Source: a virus (taxonomy: Duplodnaviria; Heunggongvirae; Uroviricota; Caudoviricetes). Taken from it: 7,825 bases of DNA. How positions within the stretch are numbered: position 1 is the first letter of the stretch; every line of letters starts with the position of its first letter. A program made the translations under genes and the position numbers. Below the pieces are notes generated by a model that was not told the DNA's origin, did not search any database, and saw only the letters and a list, made by a program, of their open reading frames with translations. Location: the IMG/VR virus record IMGVR_UViG_2706794687_000012. One strand, 5' to 3'. Positions 972-7,700 of the stretch are shown here, in pieces.

Positions 972-3152
972 TCATTCTTCCTCTGGATAGCTTGAACTTA
1001 AGAGCATATCCTGCGTGAACTGGTCATTAGCTGATTGATTGAAAGTAAAGAAAGATGGTTCATCTGGTCGAACGACAACTTGACCACCAAGTGAAACTTT
1101 CACTGGCTCCTGAATACGCTTACTCAAAGCACTAATTTCATCCCTCAGACCCTGAATATCTGCACTCGTTAATGCTGAATCTTGCTTAATGTTGTTTAAC
1201 TCTGGATGATTGAATCTTGCAATATTCATTGTGGCATTGTTAAACAATTCACCCATTGAACTAAAAATTCTACTCCATCCTTCGTTAATCATATTCGGTT
1301 TATTAGGGTCACCAGAATACACGGGATTAAAGTCACTACCCACACCTACCCCAGACGGATGCATATTAGCGTTTTTGACTACTTCCTGATTCATAAAATC
1401 CAGTGCTTTCTTCAATGCATATAAACCAAGAGTGACGCCTCTGATTTGTGGAATCATTGAAGCTAATGCTAACGCTGTTTCATAACCGTCATCAGCATAA
1501 CCAATTGCAAGAGCACTACCTACACCACCAGCTACACCTTTCAGTTTTCCACCACCTTTACCAGTAGCTACCTGACCAGCCACCTGATTAGCTCTTGTAC
1601 CTAACGTTGTGATTGCTCTTGTCAGGTTCATAACCCCTGTAGTAGCACTGAATAGCGTCTTTGCAGATAACGCTATAGCAAGACCTTTGACGAAGTTGAT
1701 AAAACCATCACCGACTTCATCAAGTAGTTTTCGTTTAGTGTCATCAAGGCTGTAATAGAACTTCTTAGTCTGTAAAATCCAGCCTTCAATGGTGTTATTG
1801 AATACGCGAATATCATCTACACCAGCTTTAAGCATGTCGATAAGTCCACCGATAGCATCACCAGCGATAGAAGAACTCATCCCCATTTCACTAAGCAGGT
1901 TACTCAGGCTGGATAAGAAGCCGTTTAGCTCATCCTGTGAACCTGAGAAGATTTTCACCATCGTATCATCCCAATTGTTTGCTAACTTACCTAAAGCTGT
2001 CTGAGTGCTCTTAGTGACTTCAGCCCAGCCACCCGCTTTATCAATCATCAAGCCCATCTGTTTAGCGACTTTAGGGAGAGTATCAGCGGAAAGTACCTTC
2101 CCGTTTTTCATGGCTGCATCAAGCTCTGTAGCAGTCATACCCAATGCTTCAGCGAATAGCTTAAATGCACCAGCCATACGGTCACCTAACTGCCCACGTA
2201 ATTCCTCAGCCTGAATCTTGCCCTTGCTCGCCATCTGCTCAAATGCTCTCAAAATGCCGTTTAGCTCATCGTTAGAAAGCCCCATTAAGCGACTCATAGC
2301 CGTTGCATTACCAAATAGCTCCTGTGTCTGTTCCTGTGACATAGAACCCTGAGCACCTGCTGCAAACTTAGCGTAGCTTGATAGCCCTTCAGAGATATTA
2401 AGACCTGTCTTGTCTGCTAAATTTCGAATAAATACCTCAGCTTCAGATGCTTTATCACCAAGTACAAACTTAGCGGCTCTCTGTGCGGAATCTCGTTTAA
2501 GACCTGCATTCATAATGGCCTTGTAAGCGTTAAGAGCACCCATCACAGAGTAAAATGCACCAGATAATTTAATCGCATTGCTTGCAAGATTATTAAATGC
2601 GTCGCTTGTATTGTTAATGCTGGCGGTCTTTGTCTGTGACCTGAGTTTATTCAACGTTTCACGAAGAGATTGATTTAATTTTGCAAGTTCAGCGTTAAAC
2701 TTTTCACTTCCAATATTACCAGCCTTACCGCTTAAGCTGTAATACTGTGCTTTAAACATTTTAGCCATCAGCGGATTAATATCACCAAGCTTAGACATAT
2801 TCACGCTATGCGCTGCTGTGATTGCTCTGTTTCCGCTAATTCGTGGTTGCCTTGATTGTTTTGGAGGATTAACAGTGTCATTAAATCTGGTGGCAAACTG
2901 AAATGCTTTTGTGCTTCTTGCTCTCTGCTCAATCTTGTCAAAGGTCTTATTAAACTTCCTTTCAAGCTGCCCTAAAGAACTTGTCAGATTGCTGTCAAGT
3001 TGCTTGGTATCGACCTTAAACGCTCTATTCAAATTGCGTTCAATTCTTTGTGCTGACTGCAAAGCTGCCTTTTCAACTCTTTGCAAGCCCTTAATAACGT
3101 TTTCACTGAAACTAAGTTCAACGATAAAACTATCAACTGTGAATTTGCTCAT
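972..3152 (-). CDS. Phage tail tape measure protein (726 aa)
   Basis: Track ORF 972-3152. RBS AGAGGTGA 7 nt upstream of ATG. Long, largely alpha-helical, Ala/Lys/Leu/Gly-rich protein; contains a segment typical of tape measure proteins (…NDELNGILRAFEQMASKGKIQAEELRGQLGDRMAGAFKLFAEALGMTATELDAAMKNGKVLSADTLPKV…) and a Gly-rich hydrophobic stretch (GQVATGKGGGKLKGVAGGVGSALAIGY). Recognised from memory of the family, not by search. Confidence 0.8.
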   Translation of the reverse strand: MSKFTVDSFIVELSFSENVIKGLQRVEKAALQSAQRIERNLNRAFKVDTKQLDSNLTSSLGQLERKFNKTFDKIEQRARSTKAFQFATRFNDTVNPPKQSRQPRISGNRAITAAHSVNMSKLGDINPLMAKMFKAQYYSLSGKAGNIGSEKFNAELAKLNQSLRETLNKLRSQTKTASINNTSDAFNNLASNAIKLSGAFYSVMGALNAYKAIMNAGLKRDSAQRAAKFVLGDKASEAEVFIRNLADKTGLNISEGLSSYAKFAAGAQGSMSQEQTQELFGNATAMSRLMGLSNDELNGILRAFEQMASKGKIQAEELRGQLGDRMAGAFKLFAEALGMTATELDAAMKNGKVLSADTLPKVAKQMGLMIDKAGGWAEVTKSTQTALGKLANNWDDTMVKIFSGSQDELNGFLSSLSNLLSEMGMSSSIAGDAIGGLIDMLKAGVDDIRVFNNTIEGWILQTKKFYYSLDDTKRKLLDEVGDGFINFVKGLAIALSAKTLFSATTGVMNLTRAITTLGTRANQVAGQVATGKGGGKLKGVAGGVGSALAIGYADDGYETALALASMIPQIRGVTLGLYALKKALDFMNQEVVKNANMHPSGVGVGSDFNPVYSGDPNKPNMINEGWSRIFSSMGELFNNATMNIARFNHPELNNIKQDSALTSADIQGLRDEISALSKRIQEPVKVSLGGQVVVRPDEPSFFTFNQSANDQFTQDMLLSSSYPEEE
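1525..1532 (-). other. Chi octamer 5'-GCTGGTGG-3' on the minus strand (plus strand reads CCACCAGC)
   Basis: Exact match to the E. coli-type Chi sequence, inside the tape measure gene. Confidence 0.5.
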
Positions 3153-4252: not shown

Positions 4253-4562
4253 NNNNNNNNNNNNNNNNNNNNNNNNNNNNNNNNNNNNNNNNNNNNNNNN
4301 NNNNNNNNNNNNNNNNNNNNNNNNNNNNNNNNNNNNNNNNNNNNNNNNNNNNNNNNNNNNNNNNNNNNNNNNNNNNNNNNNNNNNNNNNNNNNNNNNNNN
4401 NNNNNNNNNNNNNNNNNNNNNNNNNNNNNNNNNNNNNNNNNNNNNNNNNNNNNNNNNNNNNNNNNNNNNNNNNNNNNNNNNNNNNNNNNNNNNNNNNNNN
4501 NNNNNNNNNNNNNNNNNNNNNNNNNNNNNNNNNNNNNNNNNNNNNNNNNNNNNNNNNNNNNN
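4253..4562. other. Masked or unresolved block (310 N)
   Basis: Run of n in the sequence; content unknown. Confidence 1.
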
Positions 4563-4596: not shown

Positions 4597-4657
4597 CTAT
4601 TACCATCATCTCATGCTTAAGGTTATTTGTCAACAGCTTTTTAACAGATTGGTAACA

Positions 4658-4735
4658 TCAATTCTTATTTACCGTATTACCTACCCAGCAACCAACAAAT
4701 AACCCTAAAGTCATCCAGAGAATAACGAGTGTCAT
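4658..4735 (-). CDS. Candidate small hydrophobic peptide (25 aa, single predicted transmembrane segment), start overlapping the stop of the upstream gene (TAATG)
   Basis: Not in the ORF track (below its length cutoff). ATG at 4735-4733 overlaps TAA 4737-4735 of the 101-aa gene; translation MTLVILWMTLGLFVGCWVGNTVNKN; stop TGA at 4660-4658. Confidence 0.3.
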   Translation of the reverse strand: MTLVILWMTLGLFVGCWVGNTVNKN

Positions 4736-5040: not shown

Positions 5041-5093
5041 TTTTAAAATCCTTCCTGTATCGCATTCTAAGACGTTTTAACCCCTTTTTTAGA

Positions 5094-5351
5094 NNNNNNN
5101 NNNNNNNNNNNNNNNNNNNNNNNNNNNNNNNNNNNNNNNNNNNNNNNNNNNNNNNNNNNNNNNNNNNNNNNNNNNNNNNNNNNNNNNNNNNNNNNNNNNN
5201 NNNNNNNNNNNNNNNNNNNNNNNNNNNNNNNNNNNNNNNNNNNNNNNNNNNNNNNNNNNNNNNNNNNNNNNNNNNNNNNNNNNNNNNNNNNNNNNNNNNN
5301 NNNNNNNNNNNNNNNNNNNNNNNNNNNNNNNNNNNNNNNNNNNNNNNNNNN
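5094..5351. other. Masked or unresolved block (258 N)
   Basis: Run of n; lies between the stop of the 73-aa gene (5402) and the start of the 101-aa gene (5040); could hide a small gene or RNA. Confidence 1.
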
Positions 5352-5401
5352 AAAATAACGAAATGCTTTATTAGTCTGAAGTTGTACTGTGATAGTTTTC
5401 A

Positions 5402-5623
5402 TCAAGCACCCCATTCAGAAATAAGCTTAATTCCCTGCTCAAGCTGTTCAGGGTCGTTATAGTCGAGTATTACCAGTGGCTTTAATTCGTGTTTAAGCTG
5501 GTGGATTTGAGAGGGTTTTAATCGTTTGTTTGCTTTGAGGGTCACATCTTCAAATTCAGCATCTGCTAAATTCTGTCTGATTAGGTGGCGGCCAAGTGTG
5601 GAATATTGGAACCTATAACACAT
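5402..5623 (-). CDS. Hypothetical protein (73 aa), translationally coupled to the upstream 96-aa gene
   Basis: Track ORF 5402-5623; its ATG (5623-5621) overlaps the TAA (5625-5623) of the upstream gene as TAATG. Translation MCYRFQYSTLGRHLIRQNLADAEFEDVTLKANKRLKPSQIHQLKHELKPLVILDYNDPEQLEQGIKLISEWGA. Confidence 0.65.
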   Translation of the reverse strand: MCYRFQYSTLGRHLIRQNLADAEFEDVTLKANKRLKPSQIHQLKHELKPLVILDYNDPEQLEQGIKLISEWGA

Positions 5624-5913
5624 TAAACCTCCAATCTATCCGCCAGTTGATGGACCTTAGCGCTTAACACCTGAATCATTGAGCAACCTGCTACTGCGGA
5701 CTGTGCTTTGAGTAGTTCCAGTTGGCCCGTTGTGATTCTGATGGCCTTAGAACCCTCTGCGACGCCCTTAACGTTATCGAAAGGGCTAAGGTTTACCGAC
5801 TCTTTTAAAATCTCCCCAACAAGCGCTGTGTGCTTCATATCGGGATATTTGGCTTTGATTGCTGCCAGTCGTTCAAATGCCTCTGGCAAAAGGCGCGTAA
5901 CTGTGTGAGTCAT
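5623..5913 (-). CDS. Hypothetical protein (96 aa from the RBS-supported ATG; 106 aa if the upstream ATG at 5943 is used)
   Basis: Track ORF 5623-5943. The second in-frame ATG at 5913 has AAGGAGAT 7 nt upstream; the first ATG at 5943 has no obvious SD and sits about where the proposed minus-strand promoter would start transcription. Translation from second ATG: MTHTVTRLLPEAFERLAAIKAKYPDMKHTALVGEILKESVNLSPFDNVKGVAEGSKAIRITTGQLELLKAQSAVAGCSMIQVLSAKVHQLADRLEV. Confidence 0.7.
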   Translation of the reverse strand: MTHTVTRLLPEAFERLAAIKAKYPDMKHTALVGEILKESVNLSPFDNVKGVAEGSKAIRITTGQLELLKAQSAVAGCSMIQVLSAKVHQLADRLEV

Positions 5914-5949
5914 TGTAAAAATCTCCTTAAATCTCTTACTCATACTACA

Positions 5950-5978
5950 ATCTTAACATCTATTTAACATATTGTCAG
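5950..5978 (-). promoter_or_regulatory. Candidate sigma70-type promoter for the minus-strand 96-aa/73-aa operon (-35 CTGACA, 17-bp spacer, -10 TAAGAT)
   Basis: Minus strand reads CTGACA (5978-5973), 17 nt, TAAGAT (5955-5950). Its -35 overlaps the -35 of the divergent plus-strand promoter. Pattern match only. Confidence 0.3.
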
Positions 5979-6000
5979 TACCTCATTTACATGATACTAT
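5972..6000 (+). promoter_or_regulatory. Candidate sigma70-type promoter (-35 TTGTCA 5972-5977, 17-bp spacer, -10 TACTAT 5995-6000) driving the plus-strand small ORF
   Basis: Hexamers and spacing read directly; predicted start of transcription near 6007, RBS AAAGGA at 6038-6043, ATG at 6051. Confidence 0.4.
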
Positions 6001-6050
6001 GGTTGTAGGGGCTGATACAGGTGCTGTTTCCTTTCACAAAAGGAAAATTA

Positions 6051-6227
6051 ATGCATGATTTTTTCACAGCAATTATTGAATCTCATCGTTTTAGCTCGTT
6101 GGGCTTTGCGGTATTTATTGTGCTATTGGTGTTTTGCGTTATGAATCGAGTCATTACAAAAAAGACAAAGCTTACAATTCGACTTAAACTTCTTCGTGTT
6201 GAGATAGAGATTTCAGTAAATAAATAG
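6051..6227 (+). CDS. Small predicted membrane protein (58 aa from ATG 6051; 68 aa if GTG 6021 is used), only convincing plus-strand gene in the window
   Basis: Track ORF 6021-6227. RBS AAAGGA 7 nt before ATG 6051. Translation MHDFFTAIIESHRFSSLGFAVFIVLLVFCVMNRVITKKTKLTIRLKLLRVEIEISVNK: one hydrophobic segment followed by a basic tail. Divergent from the 96-aa operon and convergent with the 98-aa gene. Confidence 0.45.
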   Translation: MHDFFTAIIESHRFSSLGFAVFIVLLVFCVMNRVITKKTKLTIRLKLLRVEIEISVNK

Positions 6228-6234
6228 CTGGTGG
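6227..6234 (+). other. Chi octamer 5'-GCTGGTGG-3'
   Basis: Exact match at 6227-6234, overlapping the stop codon of the small plus-strand ORF; a near-match ATTGGTGG lies at 6262-6269. Confidence 0.5.
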
Positions 6235-6236
6235 CC

Positions 6237-6533
6237 TTACCGGCACTTTCCCTTGATAATATTGGTGGCCCTCAGATTACCGGGGTCACCGTCTTTTAAT
6301 CGTAGCTGGTGGACTGAATCCCATAAATCGTAATGATACAGCACCGCAAACTTCAAAGCGTCAATCTTTAAATCTGTCACATCATCGACGAAATAATAAT
6401 CCCTCCCTTCTTTCTTCGGTCGAATCCGGTAAACTTCCCCGTGAGTATCTTTCATCAAGTAACCTTCACGAGAAATGCTGTAACGTCTGAGTAAATAGTC
6501 ACGGTATTTTCTCTCGCCATTATAAGTTTTCAT
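6237..6533 (-). CDS. Hypothetical protein (98 aa), translationally coupled to the upstream winged-HTH gene
   Basis: Track ORF 6237-6533; ATG 6533-6531 overlaps TAA 6535-6533 of the upstream gene (TAATG); GGAGG about 9 nt upstream. Translation MKTYNGERKYRDYLLRRYSISREGYLMKDTHGEVYRIRPKKEGRDYYFVDDVTDLKIDALKFAVLYHYDLWDSVHQLRLKDGDPGNLRATNIIKGKCR. Confidence 0.7.
   Translation of the reverse strand: MKTYNGERKYRDYLLRRYSISREGYLMKDTHGEVYRIRPKKEGRDYYFVDDVTDLKIDALKFAVLYHYDLWDSVHQLRLKDGDPGNLRATNIIKGKCR
6305..6312 (+). other. Chi octamer 5'-GCTGGTGG-3'
   Basis: Exact match at 6305-6312, inside the 98-aa gene; second plus-strand copy within 80 bp of the first. Confidence 0.5.
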
Positions 6534-7471
6534 TAAAACATTCCTCCACCATAAACACGTCTGACTTTAACTTTTTCTTTCTTTGGCTCGGTGTGAGTTT
6601 TCTTTTTTGGTGTAAAAGTAAAATCATCGTCACTATCATCAAAGTCATCGAGGTCACTAACCTTGTTCTTTAGCTTCGCATTTCTGAATCTTTCTTTAAT
6701 TTCTGCTTTACGCTGTTCACGTTTCAATTCCTTTTCAGGGTCTTCTTCATCATCAAGGTCAACATCCGGTAATTCATCATCAGTGGCGGGGCACTGTGTG
6801 TTTTTATGGTCACTACTAGCAATCACATCAGAGATTTTATCTTCCTTTTTAACGACCTCTTTAGCAGCTTCACTATCAAGGTCATCTAAGTCAGATGTTT
6901 TAACAGTCTCTNNNNNNNNNNNNNNNNNNNNNNNNNNNNNNNNNNNNNNNNNNNNNNNNNNNNNNNNNNNNNNNNNNNNNNNNNNNNNNNNNNNNNNNNN
7001 NNNNNNNNNNNNNNNNNNNNNNNNNNNNNNNNNNNNNNNNNNNNNNNNNNNNNNNNNNNNNNNNNNNNNNNNNNNNNNNNNNNNNNNNNNNNNNNNNNNN
7101 NNNNNNNNNNNNNNNNNNNNNNNNNNNNNNNNNNNNNNNNNNNNNNNNNNNNNNNNNNNNNNNGCTGTAAGCTCTGTTAAAACCTCCGGTACTTCATCAA
7201 GTGAATAAACTTTAATAACACACTGATTGCTTGCAACGTTAGTTTTCTTGATTAAACCATGTGCCTCAAGTTGTTTCATACATGCAATCACGGATGTTCT
7301 TGTGATTCCAGCATACTGACCAAGATGAGCATATGAAGGGGTATAATATTGCCCCTTATCGTGATAAAACTTTTGTTCATTCAACATGACAGTGTAAATA
7401 ATACGGTCGGCAGCTTTAACGCCATTAGTCATCTGATAAATACGGTCATCAAACATGTGGAATTTTTCCAT
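6533..7471 (-). CDS. Winged-helix-turn-helix protein, putative replication initiator or replisome organiser (about 312 aa, middle 84 codons masked); charged low-complexity C-terminal region
   Basis: Track ORF 6533-7528; I prefer ATG at 7471 (AAAGGA 8 nt upstream). N-terminal part …RIIYTVMLNEQKFYHDKGQYYTPSYAHLGQYAGITRTSVIACMKQLEAHGLIKKTNVA… resembles the DNA-binding domain of phage or plasmid initiators. C-terminal part is acidic then basic (SDLDDLDSE…DVDLDDEED…SDLDDFDDSDDDFTF…PKKKTHTEPKKEKVKVRR). Reading frame is continuous across the 252-N block only if the N count is the true length. Confidence 0.6.
   Translation of the reverse strand: MEKFHMFDDRIYQMTNGVKAADRIIYTVMLNEQKFYHDKGQYYTPSYAHLGQYAGITRTSVIACMKQLEAHGLIKKTNVASNQCVIKVYSLDEVPEVLTELTXXXXXXXXXXXXXXXXXXXXXXXXXXXXXXXXXXXXXXXXXXXXXXXXXXXXXXXXXXXXXXXXXXXXXXXXXXXXXXXXXXXXXETVKTSDLDDLDSEAAKEVVKKEDKISDVIASSDHKNTQCPATDDELPDVDLDDEEDPEKELKREQRKAEIKERFRNAKLKNKVSDLDDFDDSDDDFTFTPKKKTHTEPKKEKVKVRRVYGGGMF
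6912..7163. other. Masked or unresolved block (252 N) inside the winged-HTH gene
   Basis: Run of n; length is a multiple of 3. Confidence 1.
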
Positions 7472-7569
7472 TATATTTTCCTTTTTAAAAATAAAACAAA
7501 GAAAGGGCTGACCACGTATAGTGACCAACCCCAGAGGGAGTGAATTAATTAGAAGATGGACTGATAAAG

Positions 7570-7700
7570 GAACTCAGAAGCCTGAGCGATTACGCGAGTA
7601 TTAACAGCAAAAGGAAAAGCCTTGATTGAATAAGAGGCCGTGAAAATCTGTCAATACCCTGACGCCTCCCAACGTTGTAACCTCTTAATGTTCTGAGTTC
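7570..7700. repeat. 10-bp perfect inverted repeat GAACTCAGAA (7570-7579) / TTCTGAGTTC (7691-7700) flanking 111 bp in the region upstream of the winged-HTH gene
   Basis: Read directly from sequence; a 10-bp inverted repeat within 300 bp is uncommon by chance. Confidence 0.4.

Follow-up and report, generated by a model that had tools for sequence, protein, structure and literature searches.

A predicted divergent promoter pair with phased operator-like repeats, beside genes for a putative ribbon-helix-helix protein and a small membrane protein, in a satellite-like island of Escherichia and Shigella

Introduction

The immI region of phage P22, with the repressors Arc and Mnt and the promoters Pant and Pmnt, is the closest known system to the locus described here. 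In P22, and by prediction at our locus, a region of structural genes contains two overlapping promoters that fire divergently and are acted on by ribbon-helix-helix (RHH) repressors, and one operon begins with the gene for a protein that represses the operon's own promoter (arc in P22). The P22 promoters overlap almost completely according to the sequence record (14793-14821 and 14798-14826), whereas here only the -35 boxes are shared. Arc and Mnt are homo-oligomers that bind palindromic operators, and Mnt favours Pmnt in phage P22; the candidate regulator of our locus is, in contrast, a single-chain tandem RHH protein next to four direct heptads phased at 11 bp. The regulated gene of P22 encodes an antirepressor and that of our locus a 58-aa membrane protein; a membrane exclusion gene, sieA, is annotated near immI in the P22 record. 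No sar-like antisense RNA was found at the locus, which has no sequence homology to immI.

Single-chain tandem RHH proteins are otherwise represented by TraY of the F plasmid, AvtR, and an engineered single-chain Arc. TraY has the fold closest to that predicted for our 96-aa protein, at 11% sequence identity and with no profile match. Its role is that of an accessory protein of the relaxosome at oriT, whereas relaxase and transfer genes are absent from the element studied here. The closest binding modes are those of Omega (inc18 plasmids) and CopG (pMV158), neither of which is a sequence relative. Both are homodimers controlling plasmid copy number and partition genes, and the omega heptads are contiguous, with a step of 7 bp as against 11 bp here.

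The small membrane protein can be compared with two further groups. The mRNAs of type I toxins such as hok and tisB are, like the one predicted here, monocistronic, encode a short hydrophobic peptide and hide the ribosome-binding site in the leader; they differ in that no antisense RNA was found here, that control is apparently exerted by a DNA-binding protein, and that the 58-aa protein has a long, predicted cytoplasmic, basic tail. Among phage satellites, the Vibrio PLEs of the virulent myophage ICP1 encode a serine integrase as well as a chaperone, a tape measure and a hub of their own (PMC12987554), and LidI of the Vibrio cholerae PLE is a small membrane protein without homologues that collapses lysis inhibition (PMC7182436). 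Compared by description and not by sequence, LidI resembles the 58-aa protein as a small, unannotated membrane protein of a satellite of a virulent myophage. We describe here the corresponding region of IMG/VR record IMGVR_UViG_2706794687_000012, a stretch of 7,825 nucleotides referred to as the window.

The Host Island and Its Relatives

The window belongs to an island of about 11 kb whose genes are arranged in the order large serine recombinase, "phage baseplate protein" (a Dit-like hub), tape measure, genes of 68, 236, 101, 71, 73 and 96 aa, the 58-aa ORF, a 98-aa gene, a winged-helix Rep, a Dam methylase, and a small serine recombinase. Among the internal genes, only that for the 58-aa protein lies on the opposite strand. 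Insertions were found at three chromosomal sites (wrbA/ymdF, tonB/yciI, and within yecE), and intact copies occupy 2586-13036 of locus L011, 2029-12985 of L021, and 1829-12801 of L022. Identical 58-aa and 98-aa proteins are encoded in thousands of Shigella and E. coli assemblies, and related DNA is present in many Shigella assemblies and in 149 of 5,426 complete E. coli genomes. No match to the DNA of positions 5400-7600 was obtained in the phage and plasmid collections, no capsid or terminase genes were matched in the island, and no published description of it was found. Parts of the window are masked by runs of N (4253-4562, ~5090-5400 and ~6900-7160), among them the 71-aa gene and the central part of rep; the masked sequence was supplied by identical loci (L012 and others).

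The hub protein shares 68% identity with gp119 of Felixounavirus garuso, and the tape measure 33% with gp118 (E 8e-82); the two genes follow the same order as in garuso. Felix O1-like phages are virulent and are used for Salmonella typing and biocontrol. The 68-aa protein encoded upstream of the tape measure was considered as a counterpart of the garuso chaperone gp117 and gave no match. A small integrated element with an integrase and a replication protein, carrying its own tape measure and baseplate hub related to those of a Felix O1-like phage, corresponds to what characterizes the PLE type, and the island is best read as a candidate PLE-like phage satellite.

The element is mosaic as a whole. 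The tape measure (972-3152) varies between 40 and 95% identity by segment and is shuffled independently of the neighbouring genes; the idea that the small ORF is an unusually variable cassette was rejected on this account. The Shigella copy in the window is decaying: its hub gene is split (71-382 and 663-836, within 40-840), and IS1 and IS21 flank or interrupt the island, as seen in the flanks of L001-L020.

A second subfamily (L034 and L040-L043), found in E. albertii and some E. coli, carries a protein of 247-264 aa in place of Rep, the 98-aa gene and Dam. It keeps the RHH protein, the small ORF, the leader hairpin described below, the motif CTGATAC and O2-like heptads. The spacer between its RHH gene and small ORF measures only 83 bp, which contains no O1 heptads and leaves no room for the leftward promoter, P(-); the rightward promoter, P(+), survives as an extended -10 promoter. 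This layout suggests that O1 goes with the presence of P(-), and that the small gene can exist without O1.

A Predicted Divergent Promoter Pair Overlapped by Phased Repeats

Two predicted sigma-70-type promoters stand back-to-back between the 96-aa and 58-aa genes. The rightward P(+) (5972-6000, plus strand) combines a -35 box TTGTCA (5972-5977) with TACTAT (5995-6000) across 17 bp; a TG at 5992-5993 makes this an extended -10 element (TGATACTAT, 5992-6000), with a predicted start at about 6007. The leftward P(-) (5950-5978, minus strand) has the -35 box CTGACA (5978-5973), a spacer of 17 bp, and a TGn preceding the -10 box TAAGAT (5955-5950), which places its predicted start at about 5943. 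Each promoter matches the hexamer consensus at 9 of 12 positions in addition to its TG, and each is correctly placed for its gene. The initial annotation had recognized both promoters and the overlap of their -35 elements, and both observations hold: the two hexamers have 5 bp in common and lie within 7 bp. As the two -35 boxes occupy the same 7 bp, one RNA polymerase at a time could occupy the site. The term "face-to-face" used in that annotation is, in contrast, incorrect, because the promoters diverge, their predicted starts lying about 65 bp apart and firing outward in opposite directions.

A promoter scan returned a total that was not above chance (2 found as against 2.7 +/- 2.0 in shuffles), with no additional promoter-like sites on either strand of 5400-6700. 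Trust in the pair is therefore based on position and on conservation in relatives rather than on the scan count. The control region was aligned in 19 distinct versions, 18 of which belong to the main subfamily. Among these 18, the promoter hexamers are kept or improved, towards TTGACA and TGnTATTAT: the minus-strand -35 is a perfect TTGACA in 16, and the plus-strand -10 reads TATTAT or TAATAT, always with TGn ahead of it. The stretch from the first heptad through GGCTGATACAGG is nearly constant in this subfamily. To its left, the 5'UTR of the RHH gene occurs in two unrelated versions, and to its right the nucleotide identity of the small ORF falls to ~51-62%; a value of ~50-55% was also obtained for the two flanks. 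Locus L005 carries an extra change in a -35 box (TTGCCA).

Across both core promoters, from the -10 of P(-) to the extended -10 of P(+), extends a candidate operator, O1 (5953-5992), formed by four heptads (H1 to H4) on the plus strand exactly 11 bp apart: TTAACAT at 5953, TTAACAT at 5964, TCAGTAC at 5975, and TTTACAT at 5986. With a step of 11 bp on one strand, the heptads would face the same side of the helix. In relatives the array reads TTAACAT, (T/A/G)TAACAT, TCAACA(T/C/A) and TTTACAT, with the consensus TnWACAT. The third unit has decayed in the lineage of the window (5975-5981), and the same changes weaken the minus-strand -35; both promoters of this Shigella copy are weaker than those of the E. 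coli copies. The pair of TTAACAT motifs (5953-5959 and 5964-5970) had been pointed out in the initial annotation as likely operator half-sites of a small switch. It occurs once, as against 0.01 expected from shuffles, and its proposed role gains support and is extended here by the four-unit array in relatives, by a second array, and by the RHH protein encoded divergently. Four phased WACA units occur once per ~11-kb element and 0.000 times in 300 shuffles of the element.

The second array, O2, lies with a promoter-like site, P2, at 4605-4658, in a long spacer upstream of the operon encoding the 236-aa protein, the 68-aa protein, the tape measure and the hub, just past an N-masked stretch. Its plus-strand heptads are TCAACAG at 4630, TTAACAG at 4641, and GTAACAT at 4652, again 11 bp apart. 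The first of them overlaps a minus-strand TTGACA (4633-4628), followed after 17 bp by GATGAT (4610-4605), hexamers that were read by eye; the -10-like box is CATAAT in other loci as against GATGAT in the window. Within the 11-kb elements, four phased units are found only at O1 and three only at O2 (shuffle expectations 0.02 and 0.000), and each array overlaps a TTGACA box.

A Putative Ribbon-Helix-Helix Protein at the Head of the Leftward Operon

The first gene of the leftward operon (5623-5913, minus strand) encodes a 96-aa protein that appears to be a single-chain tandem RHH protein and is the candidate operator-binding repressor; the earlier reading had not recognized this divergent gene as encoding an RHH DNA-binding protein. 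Its true start is the ATG at 5913, preceded by AAGGAG. The ORF extends to 5943, but homologues, all of 96-97 aa, do not use this extension. In 27 homologues the two beta-strands predicted to read the DNA, H3-T-V-T-R7 and S55-K-A-x-R-I-T61 (HTVTR and SKAxRIT), show no variation, unlike the linker and helices. A structure model of low confidence (pLDDT 57.8) displays a beta-alpha-alpha fold with the N-terminal strands paired as a two-stranded ribbon, and it is only from this fold that membership of the RHH superfamily (MetJ/Arc/CopG) is proposed. No match was found for the sequence in Pfam, NCBIfam, PHROG, PADLOC or PDB, a search of PDB sequences with the RHH profile returned noise only, and tblastn against 50,697 phage genomes gave one weak match, in a Shewanella Mu-like phage (E 0.01). 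A scan of the genome contigs identified a single locus, and three of the four IMG/VR loci end exactly at the start of the gene.

The heptads of O1 are probably bound by this neighbouring protein. An asymmetric single-chain pseudo-dimer fits direct, non-palindromic repeats, and the invariant beta-strands match the invariant operator.

The Small Membrane Protein Gene and Its Leader

The ORF predicted to be transcribed from P(+) (6051-6227, plus strand) encodes a 58-aa protein with an N-terminal motif ESHRF..SLG, one hydrophobic segment that forms a predicted transmembrane helix (Kyte-Doolittle 2.72), and a basic tail in which hydrophobicity alternates with a period of two residues. Five alleles of 58-62 aa share the ESHRF..(L)G motif, the single transmembrane helix and the alternating tail. 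Synonymous sites between alleles are saturated and dN/dS ranges from 0.12 to 0.46, and on this evolutionary pattern the small ORF is a real protein-coding gene under purifying selection. The composition of the protein proposed in the initial annotation is thus confirmed, with constraint across the five alleles, as is the convergence of its gene on the 98-aa gene, the end of the ORF lying 9 bp from the stop of the latter. In locus L033 (~470-480, minus-strand reading), a one-base deletion in the G run after the start codon frameshifts the allele-B ORF; the change was seen in a single IMG/VR contig and reflects a pseudogene or else a sequencing error.

The family is small, amounting to 19 clusters at 90% identity and 4 real clusters at 50% among 1.84 billion representatives; in the full-library profile search these four (61-72 aa, with ESHRF) were accompanied by one spurious repeat protein. 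No match to the small protein was obtained by tblastn against 50,697 phage genomes, nor to any Pfam, PHROG, NCBIfam or PADLOC family. Its AlphaFold2 model is one long helix, for which the viral fold search was uninformative; the period-2 tail suggests strand-like structure missed by the monomer model. From the charge distribution, the positive-inside rule predicts an N-terminus outside and a C-terminal basic tail in the cytoplasm.

The leader of the predicted mRNA contains a hairpin, UUUCCUUU-CACA-AAAGGAAA (6027-6046), that pairs the Shine-Dalgarno sequence (GGA at 6042-6044). A Shine-Dalgarno-pairing hairpin is predicted in every allele with differing stems (UUUCCUUU/AAAGGAAA, AUUCCCUUUG/UAAGGGGAAU, CCCCU/AGGGG and UUCCUU/AAGGAA), changes that form a compensatory pattern as judged from the alleles, with folding energies not significantly below those of shuffles (z -0.1 to -0.8). 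The "tight control" suggested in the initial annotation gains support from this conserved predicted hairpin. After the stop codon there is a weak terminator-like hairpin in the window (6227-6244), and alleles C and D have a canonical terminator, GCTGGTG-GTTC-GTCACCAGC followed by GTTTTT. The small gene may form a unit with its own promoter, overlapped by the operator repeats, and a terminator that is canonical in alleles C and D and weak in the window.

Two known classes of small membrane proteins were compared with this unit. As in type I toxins, the protein is small and hydrophobic (58 aa, one transmembrane segment) and its mRNA is predicted to be blocked for translation by the Shine-Dalgarno hairpin; no antisense RNA antitoxin gene or promoter was found on either strand of 5400-6700, and Rfam gave no match in the region. 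The protein shares with holins the presence of a transmembrane segment and of a charged C-terminal tail; no endolysin, spanin or other lysis genes were detected among the proteins of the element. With neither an antisense RNA nor a lysis partner, the 58-aa ORF is not assigned to any known family of toxins or holins. No co-variation links the alleles of the small ORF to those of the RHH protein or the tape measure, which indicates no partner.

A Putative Bidirectional Switch and Alternative Readings

We consider it fairly probable that the region is a repressor-operated bidirectional switch that restrains a membrane effector both transcriptionally and translationally. P(-) would head the leftward operon, with the 96-aa RHH protein as its first product. 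RHH molecules would line up head to tail along one face of the DNA, one per heptad. Together they would cover P(-) over its -10 and spacer and P(+) over its spacer, as well as both -35 boxes, so that occupancy of O1 would result in negative autoregulation and in repression of P(+). The same protein would control P2, and with it the tail-gene operon, via O2. The overlapping -35 boxes would make the two promoters mutually exclusive. The transcript from P(+) would be a short monocistronic mRNA in which the leader fold also damps translation, and the 58-aa protein would be released only once repression is lifted and would then be sparingly translated. It would act at the inner membrane on opening of the switch, most plausibly upon induction of the island by a helper phage, and its effect would probably concern lysis timing or membrane integrity, the weakest step of the model. 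Any single role for the protein, be it lysis timing, exclusion of incoming DNA or cell killing, is by itself rather unlikely; the double restraint by an operator and a hidden ribosome-binding site makes us lean towards lysis timing or killing. The main caveat to the switch model is the second subfamily, which has the RHH protein and the small ORF but neither the O1 heptads nor P(-).

A more specific version of the switch model is offered tentatively and is, in our estimation, rather unlikely. The switch and the 58-aa protein could constitute the induction and effector module of undescribed satellites of Enterobacteriaceae that parasitize virulent Felix O1-like myophages in the manner of PLEs, with the RHH protein as a master repressor inactivated by a helper product and the membrane protein as an effector, LidI-like or abortive, by which lysis timing is reset or entry is blocked. 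The RHH and membrane protein families are both currently without annotation; what is described here would be a regulatory device of a known kind built from these two families, and the island around it may be of a type not seen before in enterobacteria. If the switch model holds, a compact switch over a tail-gene operon and a membrane effector would be built from some 70 bp of DNA and a single 96-aa protein. How the island is switched on and what its one clear membrane protein does would matter for resistance to phages, and for the success of phage therapy, in E. coli, Shigella and Salmonella.

The strongest alternative, still an unlikely one, is that the small protein is the product of a moron-type gene that is on in the resting island and acts as an inner-membrane superinfection-exclusion or immunity protein. 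The RHH protein on H1 and H2 would then mainly shut P(-), and the reduced competition at the shared -35 region would favour P(+), comparable to the effect of Mnt on Pmnt. In favour of this reading, the promoter, ORF and terminator may form a self-contained unit, opposite in strand to the long unidirectional series of genes around it, and H1 and H2, the best-matching repeats, lie over P(-) only; but H3 and H4 extend over the -35 box and spacer of P(+), and a hidden ribosome-binding site argues for restrained rather than steady expression. The island has its own tape measure, the kind of protein against which such membrane proteins act, and P22 has sieA beside its RHH switch; against this, small-ORF and tape-measure alleles show no co-variation, and the protein has neither homology to known exclusion proteins nor a match in the 50,697 phage genomes. 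The retention of P(+) without any O1 heptads in the second subfamily also speaks for the moron reading.

It is quite improbable that the heptads are instead an iteron set or origin bound by Rep or the 98-aa protein rather than an operator of the RHH protein. Phased direct repeats are typical of iterons, and the O1 heptads are confined to the subfamily with this Rep and the 98-aa gene and are missing where the 247-264-aa protein replaces them. However, the N-terminal DNA-binding domains of Rep fall into three classes only 36-45% identical (L012 10483-11436 and equivalents) while the heptads are unchanged, no array is present in or adjoining rep, the O2 heptads persist in the second subfamily without this Rep, and the overlap of both arrays with TTGACA boxes is operator-like.

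We likewise give very little credence to the main product of P(+) being an RNA, a counter-transcript that collides or pairs with read-through from the Rep/98-aa operon, with the ORF as a secondary feature. The P(+) transcript would be antisense to any such read-through. No minus-strand terminator is evident between the 98-aa and RHH genes, and the 5' end of the transcript (GGCUGAUACA) is the most conserved part, with a near-copy upstream of rep that closely follows a -10-like box. Against this stands the purifying selection on the protein, since frame, length and motif are kept despite saturated synonymous sites; the Shine-Dalgarno sequence and start codon are conserved as well, and no Rfam family was matched. 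Finally, a chance origin of the hexamers and repeats in an AT-rich spacer would agree with the promoter-scan count, which is within shuffle expectation, but this is already contradicted by the comparative data, namely the conservation and improvement of the sites in relatives, along with the array statistics against shuffles and the second array at another promoter-like site, and can be dismissed.

The Leader Motif, the Convergent Gene and a Possible Second Membrane Peptide

The predicted 5' end of the small-ORF mRNA carries GGCTGATACA (6010-6019, plus strand), which is invariant in 19 distinct sequences; L040 and L041 keep only CTGATAC. It is the most conserved element of the region, yet it falls outside the account given by the switch model. 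A motif GG(G/A)CTGATA(A/C)A lies ~8-9 nt after the -10 of P(+) and again just after the -10-like box upstream of rep, where it forms inverted repeats of ~22 bp spaced 130-145 bp apart (7558-7580 of the window); in L022 the inverted partners are at 10949 (+) and 11092 (-). GGCTGATACA and the copies upstream of rep might be recognized by a second regulator common to both places, act as a 5' RNA element, or be a target of the small serine recombinase; the inverted repeats could also form a long 5'UTR hairpin.

The convergent 98-aa gene (6237-6533, minus strand) is the last gene of the Rep operon. Its product gave no profile match in Pfam, PHROG, NCBIfam or PADLOC; its C-terminus (HQLRLKDGDPGNLRATNI) resembles a degenerate HNH_3 motif, and one source calls a homologue "HNH endonuclease".

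An unlisted hydrophobic mini-ORF of 25 codons (MTLVILWMTLGLFVGCWVGNTVNKN) was also observed on the minus strand of the window at 4658-4735, with a similar peptide in L036 and L037. It begins with an ATG that overlaps the stop of the 101-aa gene and has its stop codon inside the third O2 heptad, and it is possible that it encodes a second membrane peptide of the island.
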